NCBI GenBank assembly: GCA_963698595.1
Contig: CAVORL010000002.1
Coordinates: 80,555 to 144,554 of the forward strand
Source of the DNA: an uncultured Chloroflexia bacterium
Lineage (GTDB): Bacteria; Chloroflexota; Limnocylindria; Limnocylindrales; CSP1-4
DNA length: 64,000 nt
Direction of reading: 5' to 3'
Shown: positions 10,276 through 61,230 of the stretch, piece by piece
How positions within the stretch are numbered: the first letter of the stretch is position 1
How the letters are laid out: each line of letters opens with the position of its first letter
Program-made: the position numbers and the translations under genes
The notes under the pieces: model-generated
The model's database searches: none
The model's input: the letters and a program-made list of their open reading frames with translations, nothing else
What the model was told of the DNA's origin: nothing

Positions 10276-10414
10276 GGCGATTCCCGGCCCGAGGGTCCTG
10301 TCGGGAGCCGGGACCATGCAGCCGTTTGACGGATCGCGGCCCGGGGGCGAAGGTTGGCCTCCGCTCGGCCCGTGGCCGGGCGACTCGTGCCACGCGACCC
10401 TAGAGAGCCACGCC

Positions 10415-37815: not shown

Positions 37816-38468
37816 GGGTCCTCCGTAGTGCTCGCGACGCAATCGTCGCCGTCGATGTCGTAACGGGTGTGGCAGGCGAGGCAGGCCACCGGGCCGGTCG
37901 CGTCGGCACCAACGGGTGCGCCGGCAGCGCCGACGAGCCGCCTCCCGCAGGCGCAGACCCAACCGATCCTGCGGGCCGGGTTGCCGGCGACGAGGGCGTG
38001 ATCGGGGACGTCCCGCGTGACGACGGCCCCGGCGCCGACCGTCGCGAAGCGCCCCACGTCGCGGCCGGCCACCACGACCGCGCCGGCCCCGATCGAGGAA
38101 CCGGTTCGCAGGCGGATCGGGCTCACCGTCCAGTCGTCGGCCCGCGCAAGCTCCCCTGCGGCCGTGATCGCGCGAGGGAACCGGTCGTTGGTCAGGATCG
38201 CGTTGGGCCCGATGAACACACCGTCCTCCACGGTGACGCCGTGGTAGACGAGCGCCGCGTTCTGGATCTTGACCCGGTCACCGATCTCGACGCCCTCGTC
38301 GATGAAGGCATCCCTGCCGACGACGCTCTCGGCGCCGATCCGCGCCCCGGTCCTTACCTGGGCGCGATGCCAGATGCTGGTGCGGGCGCCGACGCTGACG
38401 TCGGCCTCGAGGTCGGCCGTCGGGTGGATCCGCGCGGTGGGGTGTATCACGGCGGGGTTGGGCTCCAT
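37812..38468 (-). CDS. Left-handed beta-helix (hexapeptide-repeat) N-acetyltransferase (WbpD/WlbB-like)
   Basis: Repeating [LIV]G-x4 hexapeptides (IHPTADLEADVSVGARTSIW..IGAESVVG..IGDRVKIQN..IGAGAVVVAG..VGAGAVVTRDVP). Confidence 0.85.
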   Translation of the reverse strand: MEPNPAVIHPTARIHPTADLEADVSVGARTSIWHRAQVRTGARIGAESVVGRDAFIDEGVEIGDRVKIQNAALVYHGVTVEDGVFIGPNAILTNDRFPRAITAAGELARADDWTVSPIRLRTGSSIGAGAVVVAGRDVGRFATVGAGAVVTRDVPDHALVAGNPARRIGWVCACGRRLVGAAGAPVGADATGPVACLACHTRYDIDGDDCVASTTEDP

Positions 38469-38715: not shown

Positions 38716-39879
38716 ATGTCGCGATCGCAGGTGCGTTCGCCTGGTGAGACTGGCACTGCCGGCGCGGTTCGCCTGATCCGCCCTGACGATGCCGCGTGGG
38801 ACGCTGCCCTGGCGCAGGTTCCCGGGAGCGCCTTTCACACTGCCGGGTACCACCGCTTTGCGCGCTCCAGGGGCTTGGGTGAGCCCTTCCTGGCGATCAT
38901 AGGCGACGATGCACGAGGCCTTGCATGGCCGTACCTTCTGCGCGACATTGGGGACGTTCCCGGGCTCGAAGGGTGCGATGCGACTGACGTCAGCTCCGTG
39001 TACGGGTACCCCGGCCCGGTCGCCTGGGGAGGCACCCCGGGGGACGGGTTTGCGCGCCAGGCCTGGCTCAGCCTCGTCGACACCTGGCGCCGGCAGCATG
39101 TGGTGAGCGTGTTCACGCGGCTCAATCCGCTGCTCCAGAACGCGGCCATCCTTGGGCGGATCGCCCGCGAGCTGGGTGCGGATGCCGACGGAACGGCGCT
39201 CGCCGGGGCCACCGTGTCGGTGGACCTCACGAGCGAACCCGAGGCGATCGGCGCTGAGTATCCTCGCGACCTTCGGCGTGCCATCGCGGTTGGCCGGCGC
39301 AACGGATTGACGACGTCGCACGACGAAGCCTGGGCCCACATCGGTGCGTTCTCGCTCCTGTACCGGGACACGATGCTGCGCCTTGGCGCATCGCCCGACT
39401 ACCACTTCCGCGACGAGGAGCTGCTACGCCTGCGCGCAGAGCTCGACGGCCGGCTGCACCTCCTCGTCACGCACGTCGGGGCGTTCGTCGCAGCCGCCGG
39501 ACTCGTCATCGAGCACGGAGGCGTCGTCGAGCTGTATCTCACGGGTTGGAGCGACCTCTGTCGCGACATCTCGCCTGGCAAGGTCCTCGTGGACGACGCG
39601 ATCACCTGGGCCCGCCAACGGGGCAACTCCGTTCTCCACCTCGGGGGCGGACGCGGCGGGCATCAAGACTCGCTGTTCCGGTTCAAGAGCCGGTTCTCGT
39701 CGCGCCGCCACTCGTTCCACACGTTTCGCTGGATCCTCCAGCAGGATCTCTACGAGCAGCTCGAGGCACGGCGCTGCGTCTCGCTTCCCGCGCCCGATCG
39801 CATCGACCCGGGCTTCTTCCCGATCTATCGCGCCCCGCAGATTGCGGATCCCCGCCGGGAGCCCGCCGGACTCCGCTGA
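38716..39879 (+). CDS. FemAB-fold / GNAT-like acyl(aminoacyl)transferase, paralog 1
   Basis: 387 aa. ..SSVYGYPGPVAW..VFTRLNPLL..SPGKVLVDDAITWARQRGNSVLHLGGGRGGHQDSLFRFKSRFS.. matches the FemAB-related proteins seen in EPS loci. Confidence 0.75.
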   Translation: MSRSQVRSPGETGTAGAVRLIRPDDAAWDAALAQVPGSAFHTAGYHRFARSRGLGEPFLAIIGDDARGLAWPYLLRDIGDVPGLEGCDATDVSSVYGYPGPVAWGGTPGDGFARQAWLSLVDTWRRQHVVSVFTRLNPLLQNAAILGRIARELGADADGTALAGATVSVDLTSEPEAIGAEYPRDLRRAIAVGRRNGLTTSHDEAWAHIGAFSLLYRDTMLRLGASPDYHFRDEELLRLRAELDGRLHLLVTHVGAFVAAAGLVIEHGGVVELYLTGWSDLCRDISPGKVLVDDAITWARQRGNSVLHLGGGRGGHQDSLFRFKSRFSSRRHSFHTFRWILQQDLYEQLEARRCVSLPAPDRIDPGFFPIYRAPQIADPRREPAGLR

Positions 39880-40131
39880 GAGCGCCTGGGAACGCACCAG
39901 CTCCATCTCGTGTGTCGCTGACACGCCGTCCCTGGCGGGCGCCTGGACCGCCCGGGCGAGGATGTCGAGGTCGCGATGAAGGATCCAGGTGACCGCGGGC
40001 TGAACGTCGGGCTCGTGGCCATCCTGGAATCGCGAGGGCTCTGGCGCACGGTGGCATACTCACCCCGCGGCGTCCTGTGGGGATCGCCGGCGGCCGTGAG
40101 GCGCCGCGCGCGAGGATGTGTCGAGGTGCGA

Positions 40132-41259
40132 ATGGAGGGTCGGGCAGGGCGCCGGCACGAGGGCATTCGGTCCGGTCGCAACGCAGGCGGGACGGGATCG
40201 CTGACTGTCGTCGGGTCCCGGGACGATGAGGCATGGGCGAACGCCCTCGCCGGGGCACGCCAGCACGACTTCCATCATCTCGCCGCATACCACCGGGTCG
40301 CCGAGTCTCGCGGCGAAGGAACCGCCGCCCTGTTCGTGCACCGCGCGCGCGAGTTCACGATCGCCCTGCCGCTGCTCCTCCGACCCGTCGACGCCGCCGA
40401 CCCGGCAGGACACCAGGACGCCACGTCCGTGTACGGCTACGCGGGACCAGTCGCATCGCACCAGCGCATCCCGAGCGACGTCCTCCGCGCATTCCACGCC
40501 GAGCTTCAGGAGGAGCTCGTCAGCCGCCGGGTCGTCGCCGTCTTCTCCCGCCTTCACCCCCTCATCGAGCAGCGCGGGTTGCTGGCCGGCCTGGGTGAGA
40601 TCCGCCGCTTGGGCCGCACCGTGTCGGTCGATCTCACGCTGCCCCTGGAGGACCAATGGGCGGCCTACAGCAAGACGTGTCGACGGACCGTCAGGAAGGC
40701 CCAGGTCGAGGGGGTCGTGTGCGTGCACGACCGCGAGATGGAGCGCCGGTCTGAATGGGTGGGCATGTACCAGGAGACGATGCATCGCGTCGGCGCCGCG
40801 GCGTCCTACTTCTTCGACGAGGCGTACTTCGACCTCCTCGCGGCCGAGCTGGGCGAGGTGCTGCACTTGTTCGTGGCGCTGTACGAAGAGGAGGCCATCG
40901 CCGCCGGGCTGTACACGATCTGCGACGGCATCGTCCAGGCGCACCTGGGAGCGACGCGATCGGCGTACGCGAAGCTTTCTCCGACGCGGCTGCTCGACGA
41001 CACGGTGCGTCGCTGGGCGCACGAGGCCGGGGCGCGGGTCTTCCACCTCGGGGGGGGCGTCGGCGGGCACGAGGACTCCCTCTTCGAGTACAAGGCGAGC
41101 TTCTCGAGCCGTCGGCACCGGTTCGAGACCTGGAGGTGGGTGGTCAATGCCCCAGCCTATCGGGAGCTCTGCGCGCGCAGCGGACGGGCGGATGCGATGG
41201 CGGTCGGGAATGACGAGTACTTCCCGGGGTACCGGCTGCCGGCGCCGGACCTCACCTGA
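40132..41259 (+). CDS. FemAB-fold / GNAT-like acyl(aminoacyl)transferase, paralog 2
   Basis: Collinear with paralog 1 (..TSVYGYAGPVAS..VFSRLHPLI..VFHLGGGVGGHEDSLFEYKASFS..). The track opens at 39976. ATG 40132 gives an N-terminus of similar length to paralog 1. Confidence 0.7.
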   Translation: MEGRAGRRHEGIRSGRNAGGTGSLTVVGSRDDEAWANALAGARQHDFHHLAAYHRVAESRGEGTAALFVHRAREFTIALPLLLRPVDAADPAGHQDATSVYGYAGPVASHQRIPSDVLRAFHAELQEELVSRRVVAVFSRLHPLIEQRGLLAGLGEIRRLGRTVSVDLTLPLEDQWAAYSKTCRRTVRKAQVEGVVCVHDREMERRSEWVGMYQETMHRVGAAASYFFDEAYFDLLAAELGEVLHLFVALYEEEAIAAGLYTICDGIVQAHLGATRSAYAKLSPTRLLDDTVRRWAHEAGARVFHLGGGVGGHEDSLFEYKASFSSRRHRFETWRWVVNAPAYRELCARSGRADAMAVGNDEYFPGYRLPAPDLT

Positions 41260-41445
41260 TCCGCGTCGGCCGGAGCACCCGGGCATGGACGGTCGCACCG
41301 TCGAGGATGCACGGGAGCGGGTCGCGCTGGCAGGAGCCGGCGTCGCCGTCGCGGGTCGCCGGGGCCGACACGACACCGCGTCGCCGCCGACGAAGTTGGT
41401 CGGCGTGAACACGAGCCATCATACTGGCGGCCGAAGCCAGGACAG

Positions 41446-42177
41446 GTGAAGACCCCACCCGCAACGAGGGGACCGTTGGACCGGCCAGACGCTGGGCACG
41501 CGCAGACGACGAGGGCCGCCGCGCTTGCCCTCAAGCGCATGATCGACGCCGTCGGCGCGGTCGTCGGCCTGGTGGCGCTCGCGCCCGTGCTGGCGTGGAC
41601 CGCGCTCGCGATCGGCCTCACGAGCGGGCGGCCGATCTTCTTCCGCCAGCTGCGACCGGGCCTCCACGGGAAGCCCTACCTGATCCTCAAGTTCAGGACG
41701 ATGCGGTCACCCCGCCACGGCGAGGCCTGGTACGACAGCGACGACGAGCGTCTCACGCGGCTCGGTGCGGTTCTGCGGGCCACGAGCATCGACGAGCTGC
41801 CGGAGCTGTGGAACGTGCTGCGCGGCGAGATGAGCCTGGTCGGCCCCCGACCGCTGCTCGTCGAGTACCTGGACCACTACACGCCGGAGGAACGACGGCG
41901 CCACGACATGCGCCCGGGAGTCACCGGCTGGGCGGCCGTCAACGGCCGCCACACGGCACGATTCGAGGATCGCCTGCTCCTCGACGCCTGGTACGTCGAC
42001 AACTGGAGCCTCGCGCTGGACGTCAGGATCCTCGCGATGACCATCGCGCAGGTGCTCCGGCGCGAGGGGGTGGCGGTGACCCAGGACCAGGCGAAGATCG
42101 AGTTCCCGGCACGATTCCAGGCCGCCCTCCAGAAGGGCGACACCCCCTCCACGCCCCGGGATCCGCGCCGGGACTGA
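41446..42177 (+). CDS. Small monotopic phosphoglycosyl transferase (bacterial sugar transferase, PglC/WbaP-C-terminal type)
   Basis: [72 protein letters not shown] start. Confidence 0.85.
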
Positions 42178-42222
42178 CGCTCGACCGGCTTCTGCGTCCC
42201 GCACTCGGCACGAAGATGCCGC

Positions 42223-43350
42223 TCAGCCGGCGACCACCTCCGCGAGCACGTCCGCGACGTACTCGACCTCCTCGTCCGAGAGCCGCGAGGAGAACGGCAG
42301 GGCCAGCGTGGACGCGGCAACGCGTTCGGTCACGGGAAAGTCTCCCGCCTGGAAGCGGAAGCGCTCCTGGTAGAACGGCTGGAGGTGCAGCGGCTGGAAG
42401 TAGGGGCGGGCCGGGACACCCCGCTCTGCCAGGCGGGGAATCAGCGCATCGCGGTCGATCGCCTCGTCGAGCCTGACCACGTAGACGAACCAGTCCACGC
42501 TCTCGTCGACACCGGCCCGTGGAAGCCGGATCCAGGGACGCCCGCCAAGGGTTCGCTCGTAGGCGGCCGCGACGCGCGCGCGGCCCCCGCGAAGCTCGGC
42601 CAGGCGCTCGAGCTGGGCGACGCCGACCGCTGCCGACAGCTCATCCAACCGGTAGTTGAAGCCGAGGCGGACGTGCCGCAGCCACGTGCCGTTGGTGTCG
42701 CGCCCCTGGTTGCGCATGCTGCGCATGACGTCGGCGAGCGCCGGGTCGTCGGTCACGACCATGCCGCCTTCACCGGTCGTGATCTGCTTGTTCGGGTAGA
42801 AGGCGAAGACGGCGACATCTCCGAAGCTGCCCAGCGGGCGTCCGCCGACCCGCGATCCCAGCCCCTCGCAGGCGTCCTCGACGACTCGCCATCCGTGCCG
42901 CCGGGCGATGGCGCCGAGGTCGTCGATCCGGCACGGGCGGCCGAACACGTGGACCGGCAGGATCGCCCGCGTCCGCTCCGAGGCCGCAGCCTCCACGAGC
43001 GCCGGGTCGATCCCGAGGCTGTCCTCCTCGATGTCGACGAAGCGCGGGACAGCTCCCTCGTAGAGGACGCAGTTCGCCGAGGCGACGAAGCTGAAGGGAG
43101 TCGTGATGACTTCGTCGCCCTCGCCGATGCCGAGCGCGCGGACGCCCAGGTGGAGCCCGGCCGTGCCGCTCGAGCAGGCGATGCCCTGCGTCCGCCCGGC
43201 GAGCGCCGCGATGCCGGCCTCGAATCGCGGAGCGAACGGTCCGAGCGCCAGGATGTCACTGCCCAGGACCTCCGTGACCAGCTCCAGCTCGCGCTCACCG
43301 ATGTCGGGGCGCGCGAGCGGGATGCTGCGGCGAGCGCGGCCTGTGGACAT
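42223..43350 (-). CDS. DegT/DnrJ/EryC1/StrS-family PLP aminotransferase (PglE-like), second copy
   Basis: IPLARPDIGERELELVTEVLGSDILALG..SSGTAGLH..FAFYPNKQITTGEGG. Confidence 0.9.
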   Translation of the reverse strand: MSTGRARRSIPLARPDIGERELELVTEVLGSDILALGPFAPRFEAGIAALAGRTQGIACSSGTAGLHLGVRALGIGEGDEVITTPFSFVASANCVLYEGAVPRFVDIEEDSLGIDPALVEAAASERTRAILPVHVFGRPCRIDDLGAIARRHGWRVVEDACEGLGSRVGGRPLGSFGDVAVFAFYPNKQITTGEGGMVVTDDPALADVMRSMRNQGRDTNGTWLRHVRLGFNYRLDELSAAVGVAQLERLAELRGGRARVAAAYERTLGGRPWIRLPRAGVDESVDWFVYVVRLDEAIDRDALIPRLAERGVPARPYFQPLHLQPFYQERFRFQAGDFPVTERVAASTLALPFSSRLSDEEVEYVADVLAEVVAG

Positions 43351-43352
43351 GG

Positions 43353-43811
43353 TCAGTGAACCTCCGGGGATCGCCGCATGCCGTCACCGTCCCCGACGGG
43401 AAGCCGCCGGGCTCGCTGGAGCGTATCGATCAGCTCGACGTTGAGCCCGTCGCCCGCGTAGAGGAAGGCGATCGACGCGCCCTCGAACGCTTCACCGGGC
43501 TCCGGTGGCGCGAGGACCCGCAAACCGAGGGCCTCCAGGCGGACGAGCTCCGTGGCTACGGACGGACAGCGGAAGCAGAGGTGATGAAGCCCACCGCCCC
43601 GCCGCACGAAGGCGTGAACCGGGGAGCTCTCGTCCGACGGCTCGATGAGCTTGACGGGGAGGGAGCCGTCTTTCTCGAGGAAGACGACGCGGACCCGCTG
43701 CCGGGTGTTGAGGACGACCTCGGTCGCCTGCCGGTAGCCGAACGCCGCCTGCCAGTGCTCGATCGACGACTCGAGCGAGCGCACGGCGATTCCGATGTGG
43801 TCGAGCACCAC
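43353..43811 (-). CDS. VOC-superfamily protein (methylmalonyl-CoA-epimerase / glyoxalase-like)
   Basis: MVLDHIGIAVRSLE..VVFLEKDGSLPVKLIEP..GGGLHHLCFR..VELID. GTG start. Confidence 0.8.
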   Translation of the reverse strand: MVLDHIGIAVRSLESSIEHWQAAFGYRQATEVVLNTRQRVRVVFLEKDGSLPVKLIEPSDESSPVHAFVRRGGGLHHLCFRCPSVATELVRLEALGLRVLAPPEPGEAFEGASIAFLYAGDGLNVELIDTLQRARRLPVGDGDGMRRSPEVH

Positions 43812-43828
43812 CGTCGCCTACCTGTTCC

Positions 43829-44083
43829 TCAAGCTGCCGTGGCCTGCTTGCGGCCCACGAAGTCGGCGATCCGCCCGATGGTCTCCAGGTTGTCGGGGGT
43901 CGTCTCCCAATCCTCGACGCGGAAGCCGTACTCGCCCTCGATGAAGAGGATGACCTCGAGCATGCCCGTCGAGTCGACGAGCCCGCTATCGATGAGGGAG
44001 AGGTCGTCCGTCAGCTCAGCCGGGTCGCTCACGTAGAAGGACTCCAGGATGAACTCCCGGACCCGGTCATGGACGGTCATCAC
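43829..44083 (-). CDS. Acyl/aminoacyl carrier protein
   Basis: 84 aa, acidic. Phosphopantetheine-Ser context LIDSGLVDSTGMLEVILFIEGEYG, resembling ACP/DltC-type carriers. The start overlaps the AsnB-like stop. Confidence 0.8.
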   Translation of the reverse strand: MMTVHDRVREFILESFYVSDPAELTDDLSLIDSGLVDSTGMLEVILFIEGEYGFRVEDWETTPDNLETIGRIADFVGRKQATAA

Positions 44084-46122
44084 CGCTCGCTCTCCACCCT
44101 GTGTTCCATTGGGCCGCCCTCCGGCGGCGACTCGGCCAGCCGATCGACGAACGTCGAGTACTCGACGGCGCGATCTCGGTCCGGGCGGCGATCCAGGAGC
44201 TGCTCGACGAGCAGGCCAGTCGACAGGACGCCAACCAGAGCCATGTTATCGGCGTTCGAGAATTGCACATCGCCGCCCGTGGCACGGCACTTGCGCCAGA
44301 GACGTTCGACGGCCGCCGGATCGAAGACGCCGGCCGCTGCCACGTTGCGCGGCGACACCACTTCCTCGACCCAGGCCGGTGCGTCACCCACGAACGACAG
44401 CGCATCCGGGGCGCGGTACGGCTGCTTCGCGCGGCGCAGGATCGCCTCCGGGACAATTCCGGCTGCGGCACGCTTGAGGACGTGCTTCTCTGCGAGCCCA
44501 CGGAGCTTGAACGAGGGGGGCAGGCGGTTCGCAAGCTCCACGACTCGGGCATCGAGAAACGGGAAGCGCCCTTCCACGCCGTGGGCCATCAACATCCGGT
44601 CGCCCTGCGCCGACAGGAGGTAGCCGGACAGGAGGGTGCGCGTCTCGAGGTACTGGTCCTGGGCGAGGAACGGCCAGCGGCTGAAGGTGGCCGGCAGCGA
44701 GGTGAGCAGCCGCGTGGAGACGTCGACCGTGGTGGCCGCGCGACGGACGTCGGGTGTGAACAGGCGGTACAGGGCCGCACCGGCGTGCCAGCGAGTCCGA
44801 TGCGCGAAGCCTGGCTCGGCCCACTTCTCGCGGCCGCGGCCGAAGAACTCCTCCGCCAGCGCCCGGTTGGCCGTCGGCGAGCGCGCCAGGTACGGGTAGA
44901 GCCGGAGCAGCAAGCGGGGGCGCATCCGGGATGCCGGGAGGCGCCCCCAGAACCTCAGGACCCGCCCTTCGCGGAAGAGGTCGTAGCCGGCGAACACCTC
45001 GTCGGCGCCCTCGCCCGTCAGGACCACCTTGATCCCGGACTCGCGGACCAGCCGGGAGAGCAGGAAGAGCGGTGCGGGCGCGGTCCGCAGGAGCGGGCGT
45101 TCGGCATGCTCGACGACCGCGGGGAAGACCTCTGCGATGGCACGCCGGCTGACGGTGATCTCGTGGTGATCGCTGCCGAGCTGCGCGGCCATCAGCCGCT
45201 GGTATCCGGACTCGTCGTACTCGGCGTCCTCGAATTGGATCGAGAAGGTCGCGAAGCGCTCGCCCGTTGCGCTGAGGCCCAGGGCTGCCACCAGCGAGCT
45301 GTCGAGGCCGCCCGAGAGGTAGCTGCCCACGGGAACGTCTGCGCGGAGCATCCGGAGGCGGACCGATTCGGTGAGGGCCTCGAGGACCTGCTCCGCGGCC
45401 TCCTCCACGTTGCCCGCGAACTCGCCGTCGCCGTCCAGCGGGTAGCCCGGCTCCCAGTAGGCCCGATCGAGCACCCGGCCGCCCCGGATCGTCCGAACGT
45501 GACCGGGTTCGAGCTCCGTCACGCCCGCGAAGACGCTCTGCGGCGCCACGGTCGTCCAGAAGGTGAAGGTCTCTGCCAGGCCGATCGGGTCGAGCCGCCG
45601 GGGGATCGACGGGTCGCCCGCGAAGATCGCCTTGACCTCGCTCGCGAACCAGAGACGCCCGCCATGCTCGCAGAGATAGAGCGGCCGCACGCCGTGCCGG
45701 TCGCGCGCGAGGACGAGCGTCTGGTCAGCAGCATCCCACAGCGCGATCGCAAACTGGCCGTTGAAGCGCCCGAACGCCCCGTCGGCCCATTGCTCCCAGG
45801 CGTGGACGATGACCTCGGTGTCGCTTCGCGTCCGGAAGTGGTGCCCCAGGGCAGTCAGCTCGTCCCGCAGCTCAAGGTAGTTGTAGATCTCGCCGTTGAA
45901 GACGACCCAGGTCTGCCCGTCCTCGCCGGCGAGCGGCTGCTGGCCCGTGGCGAGATCGATGATCGAGAGGCGCGCGTGCCCCAGGGCCGCGAGCTGATCC
46001 CGGTAGAGGCCGGACTCGTCGGGACCGCGGTGCCGCAGCGCCGCGACCATCGCCCGGAGGTCGTCCAGAGCCGGCGGCGGCGCCGAATCCCGGAGCGCCA
46101 CGACGCCTGCGATACCGCACAC
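44080..46122 (-). CDS. Asparagine-synthase-family glutamine amidotransferase (AsnB-like)
   Basis: GTG 46122 places the obligatory nucleophile as Cys2 (V-CGIAGVVAL..GPDESG..ARLSIIDL). PP-loop SYLSGGLDSS in the synthetase domain. The track ORF extends to 46278. Confidence 0.85.
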   Translation of the reverse strand: MCGIAGVVALRDSAPPPALDDLRAMVAALRHRGPDESGLYRDQLAALGHARLSIIDLATGQQPLAGEDGQTWVVFNGEIYNYLELRDELTALGHHFRTRSDTEVIVHAWEQWADGAFGRFNGQFAIALWDAADQTLVLARDRHGVRPLYLCEHGGRLWFASEVKAIFAGDPSIPRRLDPIGLAETFTFWTTVAPQSVFAGVTELEPGHVRTIRGGRVLDRAYWEPGYPLDGDGEFAGNVEEAAEQVLEALTESVRLRMLRADVPVGSYLSGGLDSSLVAALGLSATGERFATFSIQFEDAEYDESGYQRLMAAQLGSDHHEITVSRRAIAEVFPAVVEHAERPLLRTAPAPLFLLSRLVRESGIKVVLTGEGADEVFAGYDLFREGRVLRFWGRLPASRMRPRLLLRLYPYLARSPTANRALAEEFFGRGREKWAEPGFAHRTRWHAGAALYRLFTPDVRRAATTVDVSTRLLTSLPATFSRWPFLAQDQYLETRTLLSGYLLSAQGDRMLMAHGVEGRFPFLDARVVELANRLPPSFKLRGLAEKHVLKRAAAGIVPEAILRRAKQPYRAPDALSFVGDAPAWVEEVVSPRNVAAAGVFDPAAVERLWRKCRATGGDVQFSNADNMALVGVLSTGLLVEQLLDRRPDRDRAVEYSTFVDRLAESPPEGGPMEHRVESER

Positions 46123-46124
46123 GG

Positions 46125-47090
46125 TCAGCCGGGCCGCAGGGGCGTGGGGACGTGATGGAGGTAGCGGCTGACGCGTCGCTTCGCCTCGATGTCGCGGAAG
46201 ACCCGCTCCACCTGCTCCAGCGTCAGGCCGATCTCCGGGGCAACCTCGGCTGCCGGGACAGCATGGTTGACGGCCCACAGGCAGAGATCCATCTCGGCGT
46301 ACGGGAGGGCGAAGTAGAACTCCTCCTGGGTCTGGCCAAGGGAGTACGTGTCCGTCGTGGGCTCGCGCCGGCGAATCTCCTCCGGCACGTCGAGTGCCTC
46401 GGCAAGCGCGAAGACCTGGGACTTGTAGAGATGGGCGATCGGCTTGATGTCCGCGGCGCCATCTCCCTGTTTGACGAAGAAGCCCTGGTCGTACTCGACG
46501 AGATTGGGCGTGCCCGCCACCGCGTAGGCAAGGCGGTCGGCGTGGTAGTAGGCGAACATCATCCGCGTGCGCTGCTTGAAGTTGGTCGCGGCCACCATCT
46601 GCCGATAGGCGGCCGGGGGCATGCGACTGCTCCGCTCGTTCCCGTCCGGGTCGGCGGCAACGAGCTGCGCGACGTTCAGGCGATCAGCGTCGAGCAGGGA
46701 GGGAAGCACGATCTTGCAGCGCCAGCCGGGTCCGTACGCGGGAACGACCATCCGTGCGGCCTCATCCTGGCGCTCGTAGCAGCCGAGCGCCTCCAACGTG
46801 GGGGTGAGGTCCTCGACCAGGTACGTGATCCCGAGCTGCTCGGCCTGCAGCCTGCCGAGCCTGAGGGCGTCGCCCGAGGAGTCGCGGTCGGGAAGCAGCA
46901 GGCCGAAGACCCGATCGGGCCCCAGGGCCCGCGCGGCCAGGGTCGCCACCACGGAGCTGTCGATCCCGCCCGACATCGCGACGACGATGCCGCGCCTCCG
47001 GAGGTCCTGCAGGACGGCGGCCCGGACCTGTGCCTCGATTGCCTCGGCTTCGCGGTGCGGATCGATCTGCAGGACGTCCCGTGAGAACAT
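46125..47090 (-). CDS. NadE-like PP-loop ATP-pyrophosphatase (NAD synthetase family amidotransferase)
   Basis: The last 321 codons of the 1003-aa track ORF: MFSRDVLQIDPHREAEAIEAQV..GIVVAMSGGIDSSVVATLA..YYHADRLAYAVAGTPNLVEYDQGFFVKQGDGAADIKPIAHLYKSQV. Confidence 0.8.
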   Translation of the reverse strand: MFSRDVLQIDPHREAEAIEAQVRAAVLQDLRRRGIVVAMSGGIDSSVVATLAARALGPDRVFGLLLPDRDSSGDALRLGRLQAEQLGITYLVEDLTPTLEALGCYERQDEAARMVVPAYGPGWRCKIVLPSLLDADRLNVAQLVAADPDGNERSSRMPPAAYRQMVAATNFKQRTRMMFAYYHADRLAYAVAGTPNLVEYDQGFFVKQGDGAADIKPIAHLYKSQVFALAEALDVPEEIRRREPTTDTYSLGQTQEEFYFALPYAEMDLCLWAVNHAVPAAEVAPEIGLTLEQVERVFRDIEAKRRVSRYLHHVPTPLRPG

Positions 47091-47195
47091 GCTGTGGGCT
47101 CCCGAAGCGGACGCGGGTGAATGCCGTCGCGCTGCCGTCCCGGCGGCACGGTGGCGGCTCCACCGTGAGTCTACGGCAGGCAGCCGACACACTGG

Positions 47196-48830
47196 ATGGA
47201 GGCGATGGGCGTCACGGATCATGCTTCTCCGGCCGGCGTTGACGGGGACACACTCCCGCCGACGTCGTTCCCCGGCGACTGGCTCGCCTTCCACGCTCGA
47301 CGGCGTCCCGACGCGCCCGCCATCGCGAGCCGCACCGCACGCCTTACCTACGGGGAGCTCGCGGAGAACGTGTCCGCCCTCGCCGGCGCCCTGGCCAGGC
47401 ACGGCGTCGAGCCCCGAACGAAGGTGCTCCTCGCGCTGCCGAACTCGGCGGCCACGGTGGTGGCGGGACTGGCGATCAACACGCTGGGTGCCACGTCGGT
47501 CGAGGTGAGCCGCGAATGGAGCGCCGACGTCCTCGGCGACATCGTGGCGCGCAGCGGAACCCGGCACGTGATCATCGCCGGGCGCGACGCGACCACGTGG
47601 GGCGAAGCCCTCGCCGGGCAGCCGGTCGATCGCGCCTGGGTGGTCAGCGACGGCTCCCGCCCCGGCGCCCCGGACGGAGCCCTGGGAACCCTCCCGGTGA
47701 CGCTGCTGCGGGAGGACGGCCGGCTGGATCCGGTCCCGGAGCCGCGGTCGCGGCCGCCCGTGGTCCGCCCGGAACCCGACTGGGCGGCCCTGGTCCTCTT
47801 CACCTCGGGCAGCACCGGCCGGCCGCATGGCGTGATCCAGACATTCCGCAACGTCGATGCCAACAGCCGCTCCATCGTGGAGTACCTCGAGCTGACGGCG
47901 CGCGATCGTGCCCTTCTCAGCCTTCCCCTCTACTACTGCTACGGCCGCAGCGTCCTCCAGACGCACCTCCTGGCGGGCGGGTCGGTCGTCCTCGAAAGTC
48001 GGATGGCATTCCCGCGCCTGGTGGTCGAGACGATGGCTGCCGAGGGCTGCACGGGATTTGCCGGCGTGCCCCTCACGTTCGAGATCCTCCGCCGGCAGGT
48101 GGACGTCGCCTCCATGCCGCTGCCGCACCTGCGATACGTGACCCAGGCAGGCGGCGCGATGGCACCGGACACGATCGCCTGGGCCCGCGCGACGTTCGCT
48201 CCGGCGCGCCTCTTCGTGATGTACGGGCAGACGGAGGCTACCGCGCGCCTCGCCTACCTGCCGCCCGAGCGGGGAGAGGAGAAGCACGGGTCCGTCGGGA
48301 TCCCGATCCCGGGCGTCGAGCTGCGCGTGGTGGACGAGGCGGGGAACGACATGCCGGCCGGCGAGGTCGGCGAGCTCGTCGCCCGCGGCGCGAACGTGAC
48401 CCCCGGCTACCTCGATGAGCCGGCTGAGACGGCGGAGATCCTGCGCGACGGGTGGCTCTGGACCGGCGACCTGGCCGAGCGGGATTCGGACGGCTTCGTC
48501 TACCACCGTGGTCGCGTGAGAGACGTCCTCAAGATCGGCGGCCGCCGGGTGAGCCCGATCGAGATCGAGCAGGTCGTCGCGCGGCACCCCAGCGTGGCCG
48601 AGGCCGCCGTCGTCGGCCGGCCGGACGACCTCATGGGTGAGGTGGCGGTGGCCCTCGTCGTCCTCCGCGCGGGCAGCCGGGTCGACGCGGCCGACATCGT
48701 CGCGCACTGTCGCGGGCATCTGCCCGCTCCTCTCGTCCCGGTGGCCATCCGGGTCGTCCACGCGCTGCCGCGGAACGAGGCAGGCAAGCTCCTTCGTGCC
48801 GAGATTGCGGCCTGGTCCCTGCCCACGTAG
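47196..48830 (+). CDS. Adenylate-forming (AMP-dependent) acyl/aminoacyl ligase
   Basis: A3 core LFTSGSTGRPHGV, A5-like YGQTEAT, A7 WTGDLAE and A8 GRVRDVLKIGGRRVSPIEIE. Confidence 0.85.
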   Translation: MEAMGVTDHASPAGVDGDTLPPTSFPGDWLAFHARRRPDAPAIASRTARLTYGELAENVSALAGALARHGVEPRTKVLLALPNSAATVVAGLAINTLGATSVEVSREWSADVLGDIVARSGTRHVIIAGRDATTWGEALAGQPVDRAWVVSDGSRPGAPDGALGTLPVTLLREDGRLDPVPEPRSRPPVVRPEPDWAALVLFTSGSTGRPHGVIQTFRNVDANSRSIVEYLELTARDRALLSLPLYYCYGRSVLQTHLLAGGSVVLESRMAFPRLVVETMAAEGCTGFAGVPLTFEILRRQVDVASMPLPHLRYVTQAGGAMAPDTIAWARATFAPARLFVMYGQTEATARLAYLPPERGEEKHGSVGIPIPGVELRVVDEAGNDMPAGEVGELVARGANVTPGYLDEPAETAEILRDGWLWTGDLAERDSDGFVYHRGRVRDVLKIGGRRVSPIEIEQVVARHPSVAEAAVVGRPDDLMGEVAVALVVLRAGSRVDAADIVAHCRGHLPAPLVPVAIRVVHALPRNEAGKLLRAEIAAWSLPT

Positions 48831-48990
48831 GACGCGGCCCAGCGGCAGCGACGGGAGGCACCCGGTGAGGGCGTACACTGTCGGGCGGCCCGGCGGGACT
48901 GCGAGCGGCTCCGGCATGGCCCCGGGCTGGAATGGCGCAGGGGAGCTGGCGAAGCGGGAGGCGCCGGGTGTGGCTGGAGGCCGGCAAACG

Positions 48991-49686
48991 ATGTCAACCG
49001 GGATGACGAGGCTCGTGATCGTCGGCGCCGGTGGGTTCGGGCGCGAGGTCCTGGAGCTCGTCGAGGACATCAACGCGACGCGCACGACCTTCGAACCCCT
49101 CGGCTTCCTCGACGACGGCGACGTCAACCCGTACATCCTGGAGCGCCTCGGCGTCCCGCTCCTGGGCCCGTCGACGCACCTCGTGGAGCTGGACGCCAGC
49201 TACGTGATCGCGATCGGCTCGGGCGAGGCCCGGCGCCGGATCGACGCCCTGGCGCGCGCCGAGCGACGTGCGGCCGGGGCCACGCTCGTCCATCCGAGCG
49301 CCACGCTCGGCAGGGATGTCGTGGTCGGGGAGGGTGCGATCATCGGCGCCGGCAGCCGGCTCACCGCGCATGTCGTCGTCGGCCGGCATGCACACGTCAA
49401 CGTCAACTGCACGCTCGGCCACGACGTGATCGTCGAGGACTTCGTGACCCTCGCTCCCGGCGTCCTCCTGGGCGGTGGCAGCGTGATCGAGGAGGGCGCG
49501 ACCATCAGCCTGGGGAGTGTCGTCCTCCCCAGCGTCCGGGTGGGCCGTGGGGCAGTCGTCGGCGCCGGCGCCGTGGTGGCGCGCGACGTCGCGCCCGGTG
49601 CGATTGTCGTCGGGCCTGTCGCCCGACCGACGCTCCGGACGCGGTTCTCGCCGGAAGGGTACTCGCCAGCGGGCGACCCAGGGTAG
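48991..49686 (+). CDS. NeuD/PglD-family sugar N/O-acyltransferase
   Basis: Codon 119 of track ORF 48637..49686: MSTGMTRLVIVGAGGFGREVLELV (N-terminal Rossmann-like subdomain), then hexapeptide repeats VVGEGAIIGAGS..VVGRHAHVNVN..VGRGAVVGAGAVV. GGAGG lies 10 nt upstream. Confidence 0.8.
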   Translation: MSTGMTRLVIVGAGGFGREVLELVEDINATRTTFEPLGFLDDGDVNPYILERLGVPLLGPSTHLVELDASYVIAIGSGEARRRIDALARAERRAAGATLVHPSATLGRDVVVGEGAIIGAGSRLTAHVVVGRHAHVNVNCTLGHDVIVEDFVTLAPGVLLGGGSVIEEGATISLGSVVLPSVRVGRGAVVGAGAVVARDVAPGAIVVGPVARPTLRTRFSPEGYSPAGDPG

Positions 49687-49735
49687 ACGTAGAGCCGCCA
49701 GCCGCGCGCTCGCAGGGGGGTGGCGACGCCCCGCG

Positions 49736-50947
49736 TCACCGACGCCGGCGCTCCGAGCGAGGGTCAAGCTCCTCAAGCGCCCGTTTGCCCATGCGCCAGA
49801 GGCCGGCGACGAAGGGGGCCGGGTCCGTGAGCGAGAGAAGGTCGTAGACGTCCCACGGCCGGAGGATCGCGGGCAGGCGGGTGGCGGATTCGCGGTCGCG
49901 GCGCGGCGCAGCGAGCCAGCGGGCCTCGAGCGTCGGACGGTGGAACCGGCGACCCAGCGGGTAGTCGAGCGGCGGCAGCGGCTCCTCCCCCAGTGCCGCC
50001 AGGACGGCGCGCTCCGTCGGTCGCAGACCGAGGAGCTCAGGAAGCCAGGCCGAGCCCCACACCCGGGGGTTCACCTCGATCAGGCACAGCGACCCGTCCT
50101 CCTGGCCGTACAGCTGGACGTTCGCGAGCCCCTCGAAGCCCGCCGCATCGCACACCCGCTCGGCGGCCTCGAGTGCCCGCGCTCCGATCCCGCGCCGCGG
50201 GTCGATGGTTGCGATGGCGGCCGCCTGGCCTCCCCGGGGCGGATACTCGAGGAAGACCCGGTAGGCGATCCGGAAGCTCGTCCGGCCACGGTGGCGCACG
50301 ATCGCAACGCTGACCTTGTGGGCCCGCTCGACGCGTTCCTGGACCATCGGCTCGAGGTCCGCGGCCTGCAGCACGGCGACCGCCGCATCCTGTTCGGCCT
50401 GGTCGGCGACCACGAACGCTCCTGTCCGGCCGACCACGCGACCCGGCCGCTCCATCGCCGTGCGCCGAGGCTTCACGATCCTGGGCCAGCCGGCGGAGGC
50501 CGGGGCAGGGAGACCCGGCATCCACGTGGCGGGATACGCCACCCCCGCTTCGGCACACGCCGCCGCCAGGTCCACCTTGTCGATCACCCAGTCCAGGGCG
50601 GCATCCATCCGCGGAACCGTCGGCACATCGATGTCGAGATGCCGAAGCCTGGCGATGGTGGAGTCGGAGACCGCGACGATCGCCTGGCATCCGCGCCTGC
50701 GTACGACGGCGGAGAGGGCCGCCTCGAACGGGGCCGCCTCCGCGTAGGGATCCGGGAGGCGCTCGTAGGGGCCGACGGCGTACTTCGACAGGGAGGCGAG
50801 CGCATCAGGCCGCCGTTCTGCGCCGGCGACTACTACGTCCCAGCCCGCGCGCCCCAGCCCACGGACCGCGGCCACGGTGTGGCGTCCGACGGGATCAAGG
50901 ACGAGGATCGGGCCTGCCCGAGTCCTCGGGTGCGGGTGGGCGCCCAT
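49736..50947 (-). CDS. ATP-grasp-fold carboxylate-amine ligase
   Basis: 403 codons from MGAHPHPRTRAGPILVLDP. PreATP-grasp ILVLDPVGRHTVAAVRGLGRAGW, RIVKPR, and ..GLANVQLYGQEDGSLCLIEVNPRVWGS (the Mg/ATP-binding E-x-N). Confidence 0.7.
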   Translation of the reverse strand: MGAHPHPRTRAGPILVLDPVGRHTVAAVRGLGRAGWDVVVAGAERRPDALASLSKYAVGPYERLPDPYAEAAPFEAALSAVVRRRGCQAIVAVSDSTIARLRHLDIDVPTVPRMDAALDWVIDKVDLAAACAEAGVAYPATWMPGLPAPASAGWPRIVKPRRTAMERPGRVVGRTGAFVVADQAEQDAAVAVLQAADLEPMVQERVERAHKVSVAIVRHRGRTSFRIAYRVFLEYPPRGGQAAAIATIDPRRGIGARALEAAERVCDAAGFEGLANVQLYGQEDGSLCLIEVNPRVWGSAWLPELLGLRPTERAVLAALGEEPLPPLDYPLGRRFHRPTLEARWLAAPRRDRESATRLPAILRPWDVYDLLSLTDPAPFVAGLWRMGKRALEELDPRSERRRR

Positions 50948-51322
50948 GCGGTGATCGTAGTGGCACCGGGTCGCAGACGCCTGCTGGGGCGCCGGGCGAC
51001 GCGTCCTGCCCGGCGCTCGCGGCGCGTCCAGGCACCGCCGCGCCTGGTCCCAGGCACCCTCGTGGCGCCACCAGCGGGTGGACCGGAGGCGTCGAGGGCG
51101 GTGCGGATGCCTGAGTCGTAGTCCGTTGGCCGATCCGGTCCCGTACGCATGCGCCTCTGGCTCGACGCCCCTCACGTCCCGTAGTGTCCGTTGCACGCAA
51201 TCAGGTGCCGCGGTCGGCGCTCGCCCACCCCGGCTCCCCGAAATAGCACACCCGTCGCGAGGCGGGGCCGCAAAGCCACGGGACTCACGCAGTCAGCCGG
51301 GTTGCCGAATGGAGCCAGATCG

Positions 51323-53035
51323 ATGTTCTGGGATGGCTCGCGCTGGGTCGACGAGCGCGCTCACTCTGCCACACCGCCCCTTGACACCACGTCCGCCCGA
51401 CGCCGCCCGCGGCGCTGGCTGACCACCGCCGCCGTGCTCGTCGGCCTGGTCGCCCTGACCGCGCCGTCGTCGGCGCCGGTCAGTGCCCGCTACGCGACCG
51501 ACCAGCTGACGGCGGCATGGGGCGCCGAGTATTCCATGGAGGTCGCGCAGGAGTCGGCCCGCCTGTTCGACGTCCAGGGCCTCTGGCATCGTCGGGTGAA
51601 CGAGAGATTCCTGAGTGGCCGCGCCCTCACGTCGTGGCAGCGAGGCGCGCGCGTCAGCGTCACCTTCTCGGGCACGGGCATCGCGATCATCGGCCCGGCC
51701 AGCGTCAACCGCGGAAAGGCCCGTATCTACGTCGACGGGCGCTACGCGAAGACCGTGAGCGCCCAGTCGGATTCCTACCTCCCTCAGCAGCCACTCTTCG
51801 TCGAGACCTGGGAGACGGAGAAGACGCGCACCGTGACGATCGCAGTGGTCGGGACGACGAGGGACGCGAAGTTCACGGTCGACGCAGTCGCCGTGCGCGG
51901 CCCGAAGAAGCCGAAGACCGATGGCCGCGCGCCGGCACCCGCGCCCACGCTCGCGCCGGTCCCGTCGCTCGCGCCGGTCCCTTCCGCCGCGCCGGTCCAG
52001 ACGCAGGCACCCGACCCGAAGCCGGCACCCGCCGCCCCTGCGGCGCCGGAGCCCACGCCGAGGCCGACCGCAGCACCGACCGCAGCACCGACCGCAGCAC
52101 CGACCGCAGCGCCGACCGCAGCACCGGCGCCGACCCCGGCTCCCACGGCGGCTCCCGCGCCGGCATCCTGCGGCTCAACGCTCCAGGCCAAGGTGGACGC
52201 GGCCCCGTCCGGTGGCACGCTCAACCTGACCGGCTGCTCCTATGGCGCCGGGGCGACGATCAGCAAGCCGCTGACGGTCGTTGGGGCCCGCCTGAGTGTC
52301 CCGGCCAATCAGCGCGGCTTCATCGTGACGGCGTCGAACGTGACCCTTGACTCGGTTGTCATCACGGGCCCGCAGGCCACGACCTATCGCTGGAACGAGG
52401 TCGGCGTGCTCACCACCGGCTCGATCTCCAACCTCATCGTGCGCAACGCGACGATCCGCTCGTTCGGCAACGCCGGCATCTGGGTTGGCACGTCTGCCAA
52501 CTCGCGGATCACCGGCACCACGATCGAGGACACCGTCTATGCGGGAATCATGGTCATCGCCGCCTCGGGCGCCCGGGTCGACGGCAACGTCGTACGCCGG
52601 GTCGGGGTGAACGGCGCCTCCGCGAACGGCAACAACGCCTACGGCATCGCGGTCTCCAACGAGGGCGGGGCGGTCTCCAGCGACGTCGTGATCGACGGGA
52701 ACACCGTCGCGACCGTGCCCACCTGGCACGGGCTGGACACCCACGCCGGCGTGCGAGTCTCGTTCACGAACAACACGGTCAGCGGCTCCCCACGCGCCCT
52801 CTTTGTCACGAGCGACAGCTACGGCCGCAATGCCGCGGACATCACCGTGACGGGGAACCGGTTCCTGAGCCCGTCTCCGGCCACGACGAACCTCTCCACC
52901 ATCACGACCTATGCCGCCAGTCGCGTGACGGTCACCGGCAACACCTCCAGCGGCTGGGGAAGCGCGTCGTTCTTCTACGACTACCAGGGGAAGAGCAGCG
53001 GGCTCGTCGTCTCAGGGAACTCCATCACGCCGTAG
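51323..53035 (+). CDS. Secreted/anchored right-handed parallel beta-helix protein 1 (N-terminal beta-sandwich module + Pro/Ala linker + beta-helix)
   Basis: ATG 51323 (GGAG upstream; codon 45 of the track ORF). RRPRRWL plus a hydrophobic segment. Repetitive NxxIxxxGNAGI / TIEDTVYAGI / GNVVRRVG coils typical of pectate-lyase-fold/NosD repeats. Confidence 0.75.
   Translation: MFWDGSRWVDERAHSATPPLDTTSARRRPRRWLTTAAVLVGLVALTAPSSAPVSARYATDQLTAAWGAEYSMEVAQESARLFDVQGLWHRRVNERFLSGRALTSWQRGARVSVTFSGTGIAIIGPASVNRGKARIYVDGRYAKTVSAQSDSYLPQQPLFVETWETEKTRTVTIAVVGTTRDAKFTVDAVAVRGPKKPKTDGRAPAPAPTLAPVPSLAPVPSAAPVQTQAPDPKPAPAAPAAPEPTPRPTAAPTAAPTAAPTAAPTAAPAPTPAPTAAPAPASCGSTLQAKVDAAPSGGTLNLTGCSYGAGATISKPLTVVGARLSVPANQRGFIVTASNVTLDSVVITGPQATTYRWNEVGVLTTGSISNLIVRNATIRSFGNAGIWVGTSANSRITGTTIEDTVYAGIMVIAASGARVDGNVVRRVGVNGASANGNNAYGIAVSNEGGAVSSDVVIDGNTVATVPTWHGLDTHAGVRVSFTNNTVSGSPRALFVTSDSYGRNAADITVTGNRFLSPSPATTNLSTITTYAASRVTVTGNTSSGWGSASFFYDYQGKSSGLVVSGNSITP
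51950..52003 (+). repeat. Imperfect 18-bp tandem repeat x3 inside the linker
   Basis: ctcgcgccggtcccgtcg / ctcgcgccggtcccttcc / gccgcgccggtccagacg, encoding LAPVPS-LAPVPS-AAPVQT. Confidence 0.7.
52064..52123 (+). repeat. 12-bp tandem repeat x5 (ccgaccgcagca), in frame, encoding (PTAA)5
   Basis: Five head-to-tail copies. The fourth ends in g instead of a. Confidence 0.9.
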
Positions 53036-53092: not shown

Positions 53093-53326
53093 GGATCTGG
53101 GCGATACTGCGCCAATCCCGGGGCTGACCCACGCGTACTCCGGCCGGCCGTGACGCGCCCCATGGCGCCGTCCTGTGCGGACCGGCGGCCCCTACCCGAC
53201 GCGATCGGGCATCGCCGGGCATTTGAGGACCAACCGAGGAGCTTCACGGCGGCGATTGCCACCGTGACCGCGACAACGCCGCCGGCTCCCCGGACCGGCA
53301 CGCGGCGCACGTGCACCCGTCCTAGC

Positions 53327-61213: not shown

Positions 61214-61230
61214 CGGACGGGGCACGCCGG

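Follow-up and report, generated by a model that had tools for sequence, protein, structure and literature searches.

In Vibrio cholerae O1, perosamine bears a tetronate N-acyl group that is made with the help of a carrier protein and a ligase, and in oxytetracycline biosynthesis AsnB homologues of the OxyD type convert a malonyl thioester into a malonamyl unit. In the Dlt system, an adenylating enzyme (DltA) loads a small dedicated carrier (DltC), the donor to a cell-surface polymer. Here we compare these systems, and a four-gene operon of Sinorhizobium meliloti, with positions 38716-50947 of a 64,000-nucleotide stretch of DNA (the window; from contig CAVORL010000002.1 of an uncultured Chloroflexia bacterium). 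At the centre of this segment are genes for a NadE-like enzyme, an AsnB-like amidotransferase, an acyl carrier protein (ACP) and an adenylate-forming ligase, which form an autonomous, mobile cassette that spans phyla. The reading that we favour, with a probability of roughly 45%, is that the acyl group borne by the carrier is amidated and then transferred to a 4-amino sugar of a surface polysaccharide.

The S. meliloti operon, asnB-smb20651-smb20650-nadE1, was published in 2009 (Ramos-Vega et al., 2009, Microbiology 155:257). According to PMC7232532, which cites that work, smb20650 is cotranscribed with the ACP gene smb20651, holo-SMb20651, which carries 4'-phosphopantetheine, forms with AcpS in Escherichia coli, acylated SMb20651 results when SMb20650 is added to E. 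coli making the holo-protein, and SMb20650 does not replace FadD. In 2017, the function of SMb20651 was still in need of investigation (PMC5686131). In the literature we found neither a later assignment of a role to this operon nor a characterised pathway with the full gene set of the window, the latter in agreement with an earlier note on this DNA, which had been made from the sequence alone.

The four cassette genes are all adjacent in the window (43829-48830), and the layout in Anaeromyxobacter dehalogenans (2CP-1, CP001359.1, around 3.26-3.28 Mb) is identical:

46125-47090, minus strand: NadE-like PP-loop ATP pyrophosphatase of 321 aa with the motif SGGIDS
44080-46122, minus strand: AsnB-like glutamine amidotransferase of 680 aa with a GTG start followed by Cys2, and the motif SGGLDS
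43829-44083, minus strand: ACP of 84 aa with the motif LVDSTG
47091-47195: divergent spacer of 105 bp between the nadE-like and the ligase gene, as read from the sequence
47196-48830, plus strand: adenylate-forming ligase of 544 aa, assigned to 'type A' by its motif LPLYYCYGRSVLQTHL and encoded divergently to the nadE-like gene

Because the G+C content of the window is high (70-75%), genes were called by third-position GC content and then checked with Pfam and NCBIfam. All the genes, motifs, strands, coordinates and spacings that the earlier note had listed are present, including the divergent spacer and an ATP-grasp gene that converges on the ligase and NeuD-like genes, and the identities given to the genes hold. 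On the minus strand, the nadE-like and asnB-like genes are 2 nt apart, the asnB-like and ACP genes overlap by 4 nt, and two further genes, for a VOC protein and a DegT-family aminotransferase, follow after gaps of 17 and 2 nt. The spacer gave neither a sigma-70-like nor an Rfam match.

The products belong to the same four protein families as those of the S. meliloti operon, and the ACPs share the DSTG serine motif. Over about their full length, the window proteins are 58% (NadE), 49% (AsnB), 42% (ACP) and 38% (ligase) identical to the S. meliloti proteins in tblastn (locus L088), and the cassette is homologous to the asnB-smb20651-smb20650-nadE1 operon. The S. meliloti genes carry the numbers SMb20649-20652. 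A tblastn search of plasmids matched 117 records, 76 of them from Sinorhizobium and S. meliloti pSymB among these; on pSymB of strain RCAM1750, genes annotated as asnB, acyl carrier protein, acyl-CoA ligase and nadE stand in a row. The two versions also differ. In S. meliloti the order is asnB-acp-ligase-nadE in one direction, whereas the ligase gene of the window is divergent, and the operon is without the VOC, DegT and NeuD-like partners described below and lies next to minCDE, not in a glycan locus. An acyl group borne by the carrier and loaded by the ligase, as proposed in the earlier note, has experimental backing in this homologous operon (PMC7232532).

The NadE-like protein passes the generic models of its family (NF002048, 500.6 bits vs a cutoff of 313; TIGR00552, 144 vs 64; NAD_synthase, 159 bits). 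However, it has an insertion of about 65 aa relative to the Pyrococcus horikoshii NadE; this insertion and the conserved neighbourhood of ACP and ligase genes argue for a substrate other than nicotinic acid adenine dinucleotide. The AsnB-like protein has the N-terminal Cys nucleophile, the class II glutamine amidotransferase domain (GATase_7, 155 bits) and the PP-loop synthetase domain (Asn_synthase, 320 bits) of the AsnB family, scores 516 bits on TIGR01536 (cutoff 267), and shares its N-terminus (M/V)CGI with nearly all homologues inspected. The ACP has no match in Pfam; it matches ACP families of NCBIfam, the best being a lipid-pathway ACP (NF052616, 58.6 bits vs a cutoff of 130), and across 53 loci its serine motif, G(I/L)VDSTG, shows a conservation of 90% or more. 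The ligase carries LFTSGSTGRPHG and combines AMP-binding (248 bits) with AMP-binding_C (74 bits); among PDB entries it comes closest to FadD5, feruloyl-CoA synthetase and oxalyl-CoA synthetase. Cassette ligases fall into three subtypes, told apart by the motif after A3. Their binding pocket was considered as an indicator of the substrate and proved uninformative, the equivalent of GrsA Asp235 being Cys in type A, Val in type C and mostly Asp, but also N, S, T or G, in type B.

NadE-like homologues make up at least 8,000 protein clusters (90% identity) at E ≤ 1e-20, the top matches being 71-85% identical to the window protein, and identities across phyla range from 58 to 85%. In species-representative genomes, 401 relatives were detected, and the 80 best loci were examined; for the 48 that have full flanks, neighbours within 8 kb of NadE were counted by ORF clustering and tblastn. 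The loci stem from at least eight phyla, namely Chloroflexota, Myxococcota (including cultured Anaeromyxobacter), Acidobacteriota, Beta-/Gammaproteobacteria, Gemmatimonadota, Planctomycetota, Bacteroidota and Ignavibacteriota. Among the best 80 of the 401, the closest are from Chloroflexota (75-79% identity), the relatives being Chloroflexia and Limnocylindrales metagenome-assembled genomes (MAGs). AsnB is found near NadE in 45 of the 48 loci, the ligase in 43 and the ACP in 41, and these counts define NadE, AsnB, ACP and ligase as the conserved unit. Half of the loci (24/48) have a left-handed beta-helix (LbH) acyltransferase. Less frequent are an SGNH-like secreted protein (14/48), a HemK-like methyltransferase (13/48), a phosphoglycosyl transferase (12/48), DegT (7/48), VOC (6/48), Fem-like proteins (6/48) and the ATP-grasp ligase (3/48). 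The VOC, DegT, NeuD/VioB-like, FemAB-like, PglC and ATP-grasp accessories are specific to the Chloroflexota lineage.

These results bear on two proposals of the earlier note. Of the five-gene block that it singled out for a neighbourhood search, NadE, AsnB and ACP recur, but VOC and DegT mostly do not. Moreover, it had joined all the genes into a single undescribed pathway. The accessories are rare beside the core (3-12 of 48 loci for the FemAB-like, ATP-grasp, VOC, DegT and PglC genes) and the Fem-like and ATP-grasp genes are also found in loci that lack the cassette, so that this is not one pathway. With a core on record since 2009 and with twelve genes that represent several modules, the claim to novelty shrinks.

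Homologues of the cassette proteins carry generic RefSeq labels (nadE, asnB), and NCBIfam has no model specific to the cassette. Apparent NadE-AsnB fusions in several loci (ORFs of 860-1980 aa) were rejected as upstream extensions of the AsnB frame in high-GC DNA, and a PIG-L deacetylase was ruled out as a recurring partner, being present in only two loci. The 5' ends of public gene calls in these high-GC MAGs are unreliable; for example, one Chloroflexota NadE-like gene (L086, 19071-20432) was called as an over-extended protein of 453 aa.

Outside Chloroflexota the cassette has other companions. In 21 loci of Proteobacteria and Myxococcota, a HemK-family N-methyltransferase with an NPPY motif lies between ligase and ACP, and the sequence CNPPYI is present in all 21. 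Methyltransferases of the NPPY type have amide or amine nitrogens as their targets, and this partner is therefore indirect support for a primary amide as the product. In the same two groups, the cassette is often followed by an EpsC-like LbH (hexapeptide) acyltransferase and a secreted SGNH-like protein with the motifs FGHQSVG and DGGHLN, the latter without an NCBIfam family match. On S. meliloti pSymB, a HemK-like methyltransferase homologue of 57% identity (L088, 26564-27190) is found 12 kb from the cassette, next to a gene annotated 'lipopolysaccharide biosynthesis protein'. In A. dehalogenans, Mesorhizobium and the Chloroflexota MAGs, the cassette lies within or beside polysaccharide genes; it is not, however, restricted to glycan loci, as its contexts in S. 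meliloti and in one MAG each of Nitrosomonadales and, apparently, Bacteroidota show.

In the window, three accessory genes adjoin the cassette:

43353-43811, minus strand: VOC protein of 152 aa, methylmalonyl-CoA-epimerase-like (Glyoxalase_4, 74 bits)
42223-43350, minus strand: DegT-family sugar aminotransferase (DegT, 387 bits)
about 48988-49686, plus strand: LbH N-acyltransferase of the NeuD/PglD/VioB family (PglD_N, 42 bits; Hexapep, 63 bits)

The VOC protein does not reach the cutoff of the epimerase equivalog TIGR03081 (67.9 vs 115 bits), and its PDB matches include methylmalonyl-CoA epimerases (that of Streptomyces coelicolor with E = 7e-13) and glyoxalase I. The solved structures closest to the DegT protein are perosamine synthetase (251 bits) and ArnB, not PglE, and those closest to the NeuD-like protein, which scores just under the cutoff of TIGR03570 (160.1 vs 160.8 bits), are VioB, an LbH transferase of Acinetobacter baumannii (4m9c), a Neisseria pilin-glycosylation transferase (4m98) and PerB. 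Perosamine synthetase, VioB and PerB act on 4-amino-4,6-dideoxyhexoses, and these closest structures point to such a hexose as the putative target sugar. A gap of 157 nt (48831-48987), absent from the earlier note, in which neither an Rfam match nor an obvious ORF was found, separates the stop of the ligase gene from the NeuD-like start, which is itself uncertain (MAPGWNG..., MSTGM... or MTRL... are possible). The NeuD-like gene adjoins the ligase in four loci (L005, L007, L008 and L086), and the same block in the same order, with protein identities of 60-85%, is present in five Chloroflexota MAGs, a conservation which argues that the block did not arise by chance. In Chloroflexota, the wiring of the cassette to two sugar enzymes, an aminotransferase and an N-acyltransferase, suggests N-acyl decoration of a 4-amino sugar.

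From these data a route can be sketched. The ligase would adenylate a carboxylic acid and thioesterify it onto the 84-aa ACP, a step for which the S. meliloti homologue provides experimental support. The AsnB-like enzyme, which is glutamine-dependent and has its Cys2 intact, and the ammonia-dependent NadE-like PP-loop enzyme would turn one or more free carboxyls into carboxamides. The VOC protein would set the C2 configuration of a 2-substituted carboxy-acyl thioester, and the NeuD/VioB-like LbH enzyme would use the finished acyl group to N-acylate, at C4, an NDP-4-amino-4,6-dideoxyhexose produced by DegT. A PglC-like transferase, encoded next to DegT, would start the repeat unit on undecaprenyl phosphate. 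For the acyl group, both a small dicarboxylate and a fatty acid are conceivable. The likeness of the VOC protein to methylmalonyl-CoA epimerase is a weak hint at a malonyl-type unit, which would also fit the OxyD precedent and the malonylation of SMb20651 by FabD that is said to occur in vitro. That the cassette in general installs an amide-bearing acyl group on surface glycans by means of its dedicated carrier, N-methylated wherever the NPPY methyltransferase is present, is a wider proposal that we regard as doubtful.

Each of the described systems shares part of this logic. The V. cholerae O1 genes rfbKLMNO, compared by gene content rather than by sequence, resemble the window in having, within an O-antigen locus, a dedicated ACP with a ligase, an aminotransferase of the perosamine-synthase type and a hexapeptide-repeat acyltransferase; they are without AsnB-like and NadE-like enzymes and have tailoring of the reductase/dehydrogenase type instead. 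OxyD is likewise an amidotransferase of the AsnB family that acts on a carboxy-acyl thioester, which agrees with the epimerase-like VOC protein of the window, but it belongs to a type II polyketide context without a second PP-loop enzyme or a sugar acceptor. Besides the loading of a small dedicated carrier for a cell-surface polymer, the likeness to Dlt extends to the SGNH-like secreted partner of the cassette in other phyla, which is of the fold class of DltD; in contrast to Dlt, the cassette has no MBOAT protein (DltB), two extra amidating enzymes and a cytoplasmic LbH transferase.

Several observations weigh against transfer of an amidated, ACP-bound acyl group to a 4-amino sugar. Action of AsnB and NadE on the ACP-bound group is only inferred. 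The characterised enzymes of the NeuD/PglD family, to our knowledge, use acyl-CoA and not acyl-ACP. In E. coli, SMb20651 reportedly takes C12:0 and C18:0 acyl forms, which fit poorly with amidation because they lack a second carboxyl. The S. meliloti ligase, on which the evidence for loading is based, is of 'type B' (LPLAFDYGLYQ) and only 38% identical to the 'type A' ligase of the window (LPLYYCYGRS). A PglF-type (Polysacc_synt_2) 4,6-dehydratase was not found in the window by tblastn with a PglF-like protein, the sole match being a weak one to an SDR gene of 30% identity (60314-61063); thus, of a PglC/PglE/PglD-type set, the PglC-type transferase and the PglD_N/hexapeptide acyltransferase are present and the PglF-type dehydratase is not. 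As for genomic context, a crude BLAST test detected a glycan-assembly gene within 10 kb in only 29 of 57 loci. The RCAM1750 operon adjoins minCDE, outside glycan loci; in a Nitrosomonadales MAG (L034, 586-9318) the cassette adjoins fabH-fabD-fabG-fabF-pabC-yceG-tmk; and in a Myxococcaceae MAG (L029) it lies among unrelated, non-glycan genes.

The strongest alternative, which we nevertheless consider unlikely, separates the two activities: the amidating enzymes would act on sugars, either amidating a uronic acid as WbpS does or forming an amidine as WbpG does, and the ligase and ACP would deliver an ordinary fatty or hydroxy-acyl group for LpxD-like LbH transfer to the amino sugar. A diacetamido-uronic acid pathway is indeed encoded 6 kb upstream, and other O-antigen loci use AsnB homologues for the amidation of uronic acids. 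The ligase is most similar to long-chain fatty-acid ligases (PRK06187, 333 bits; FadD5), and the relationship of the ACP to lipid-pathway carriers and the C12/C18 forms reported for SMb20651 point in the same direction. However, NadE and AsnB almost always adjoin the ACP and the ligase, and they do so even where sugar genes are not nearby. Of the 80 genome loci scanned, just 4 gave matches to the WbpA-like dehydrogenase, and the cassette is thus not tied to uronic acids. In addition, the NadE-like protein has no match to the WbpG/WbuX N-acetyl-sugar amidotransferase model in NCBIfam at E ≤ 0.01.

Less probable still is a product other than a glycan, for instance a lipid with an amide group or a secreted small molecule, with the position in a glycan locus due to co-regulation or chance insertion. 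This would account for the stand-alone contexts (minCDE in S. meliloti, the fab genes in L034, the Myxococcaceae MAG, and a Bacteroidota MAG, L080, in which the unscanned neighbouring ORFs are housekeeping in appearance) and for the 28 of 57 loci without a BLAST-detectable glycan gene within 10 kb, and fatty-acyl loading of a homologous ACP has experimental evidence. In the window, on the other hand, the cassette runs into a sugar aminotransferase gene through gaps of 2-17 nt or overlaps and a sugar N-acyltransferase gene follows the ligase, a wiring kept in five Chloroflexota MAGs; the cassettes of A. dehalogenans and Mesorhizobium lie inside or beside polysaccharide genes, and the EpsC-like and SGNH-like partners found elsewhere are typical of polymer acylation.

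Membership of the XrtA/PEP-CTERM set of exosortase-associated exopolysaccharide (EPS) genes is very improbable. In this set, too, AMP-ligase, AsnB, FemAB-like GNAT and ACP superfamilies cluster in EPS loci, and its models (ligase_PEP_1, eps_aminotran_1 and pepcterm_femAB) are among the top-scoring named matches for the ligase, AsnB and the Fem-like proteins, a 'type B' cassette ligase reaching 488 bits on TIGR03098; in L034, moreover, the cassette precedes genes for a sigma-54 response regulator and an AAA_22 ATPase that are similar to those of PEP-CTERM loci. The window proteins remain far under the cutoffs, though (TIGR03098, 308 vs 592; TIGR03108, 432 vs 817; TIGR03019, 25-28 vs 260), NadE-like enzymes are not members of the set, and neither an exosortase-A-associated decarboxylase nor PEP-CTERM genes were seen among the scanned ORFs. 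Exosortase families were also unmatched (Pfam) among the sizeable ORFs at 28-64 kb, positions 1-28 kb having merely been sampled, which bears out the earlier note's remark that no exosortase is visible. Finally, that an ordinary NAD+ synthetase and an ordinary asparagine synthetase happen to lie here would explain why both proteins pass the generic curated models and why RefSeq names their homologues nadE and asnB, but hardly the synteny with a dedicated ACP and ligase across phyla, the NadE insertion, the roughly 125 aa by which the AsnB-like protein exceeds E. coli AsnB, or the name nadE1 of the S. meliloti copy, one of several NadE paralogues, and is just as improbable.

The rest of the segment is made up of genes that are separable from the cassette:

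38716-39879, plus strand: Fem-like tandem-GNAT protein 1 (Fem1) of 387 aa (PF13480, 46 bits)
39976-41259, plus strand: Fem-like tandem-GNAT protein 2 (PF13480, 43 bits); 375 aa if translated from an alternative ATG at 40132
41446-42177, plus strand: small PglC-type phosphoglycosyl transferase of 243 aa (Bac_transf, 211.5 bits over residues 30-204)
49736-50947, minus strand: ATP-grasp ligase of 403 aa (PF02222, 28.4 bits vs a cutoff of 27, marginal)

The two Fem-like proteins are paralogous (36% identity, E = 5e-55). Only PF13480 (GNAT Acetyltransf_6) passed in Pfam; FemAB itself (PF02388) scored 18.4 and 21.1 bits, below the gathering threshold of 24. The AlphaFold2 (AF2) model of Fem1 (pLDDT 88.4), in contrast, has as its top 14 Foldseek matches in the PDB Sba18/Sbb17, the Weissella FemX, FemA and MprF-type proteins, with E-values of 4.5e-15 to 5e-12 and TM-scores of 0.57-0.65 when normalised to the query and 0.60-0.78 when normalised to the target. 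The predicted structure thus confirms a FemX-like tandem-GNAT (FemAB) fold, so that both the fold and the paralogy claimed in the earlier note stand. Sequence identity between Fem1 and Sba18/Sbb17, FemX and FemA is only 10-20%. We take the 14 matches to be aminoacyl-tRNA-dependent enzymes. The deposited Sba18/Sbb17 structures include complexes with streptothrisamine, presumably an amino-sugar intermediate; if this is right, Sba18/Sbb17 would be a precedent for the aminoacylation of a sugar amine. Other acyl donors are possible for PF13480 proteins such as HfsK.

The Fem-like family comprises about 300 clusters, and many of its members, with a length of about 530 aa, include a fused RimI-like GNAT domain, which is one hint that aminoacyl-tRNA is the donor. 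Two loci have Fem-like genes together with PglC, DegT and a PglF-like dehydratase and without the cassette (L084, 10001-11584; L085, 10001-11146). Together, the fusions and the cassette-free neighbourhoods suggest an independent amino-sugar module of the type 'aminoacyl then N-acetyl', and the pair in the window would be an add-on that probably transfers aminoacyl groups to a sugar amine.

For the ATP-grasp protein, the AF2 model (pLDDT 94) retrieves biotin carboxylase, RizA and PurK in Foldseek (E about 1e-12), and the predicted structure confirms the ATP-grasp fold. Its start at 50947 is supported by a conserved LVLDP..RH N-terminus, which lies upstream of the start of a public gene call (P0241) that is 24 aa too short at this end. 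With 60 matches, the family is small. A 42%-identical member occurs in a locus with WbpB/E/D-like genes and without the cassette, which points to a uronic acid as the substrate; as another independent add-on, the enzyme of the window would probably form an amide at the carboxylate of the diacetamido-uronic acid made next door. In the locus of a distant homologue (L087, 13854-16091), WbpB/E/D-like genes are joined by a second ATP-grasp gene and by one that resembles phosphatidylserine decarboxylase, an arrangement that hints at an amine donor for uronic-acid amidation.

Placed inside a Wzx/Wzy surface-polysaccharide locus of a Chloroflexota-like genome with a G+C content of 72%, the whole segment falls into four or more separable modules. 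As the earlier note had recognised, this is a glycan locus: Pfam and NCBIfam identify WbpA/B/E/D-like genes, glycosyltransferases, Wzy and Wzx. We put it a little short of even odds that the region as a whole acts as a composite glycan-decoration segment of this locus. Two elements frame it:

34251-38468, minus strand: WbpA/WbpB/WbpE/WbpD-like genes for a 2,3-diacetamido-2,3-dideoxy-hexuronic acid
51235-51309, plus strand: c-di-GMP-I riboswitch (RF01051, 60.1 bits vs a gathering score of 35)

The first encodes a nucleotide-sugar dehydrogenase (338 bits), a UDP-GlcNAc 3-dehydrogenase-like protein (252 bits), one DegT protein and one LbH acetyltransferase; farther upstream lie a GT2 glycosyltransferase, a PIG-L deacetylase and NDP-sugar enzymes. 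Downstream of the ATP-grasp gene are beta-helix proteins, Wzy, GT4 glycosyltransferases and Wzx. The riboswitch occupies the divergent gap past the ATP-grasp gene, directly upstream of the polymerase/glycosyltransferase block; its end lies 14 nt upstream of the ATG (51323) of the first beta-helix/NosD-like gene, with a GGAG at 51311-51314 between the aptamer and this start. It is conserved in four relatives (L004, 3591-3664; L005, 5942-6016; L008, 1015-1089; L086, 8821-8895), two of which score best with the GGC variant RF03167. The scan for promoters and terminators gave nothing that exceeded shuffled controls.

The glycan locus contains three right-handed beta-helix (NosD-like) genes (51323-53035 and 53150-54415 on the plus strand, 61118-62281 on the minus strand), whose products may be polysaccharide lyases, epimerases or surface proteins. 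Upstream of the locus are a PMT_2/YkcB-like membrane glycosyltransferase and two S8 subtilases (6621-8648, 10223-12727 and 26028-28091, all on the plus strand). In L084, too, the Fem-like locus comes after a Lactamase_B and subtilase pair, an arrangement suggestive of conserved flanks.

What is new here is the scale on which the cassette is distributed and its wiring into an amino-sugar branch. The labels 'NAD(+) synthase' and 'asparagine synthase' that its genes carry are probably misleading. The wiring offers a testable function for a carrier protein that has long been an orphan, and A. dehalogenans 2CP-1 and S. meliloti are culturable hosts. If the wider proposal of an amide-bearing glycan substituent is true, the Chloroflexota arrangement, with DegT and a VioB-like transferase, would provide the first functional assignment for SMb20651, and the cassette would represent a widespread glycan modification system whose logic is comparable to that of D-alanylation.

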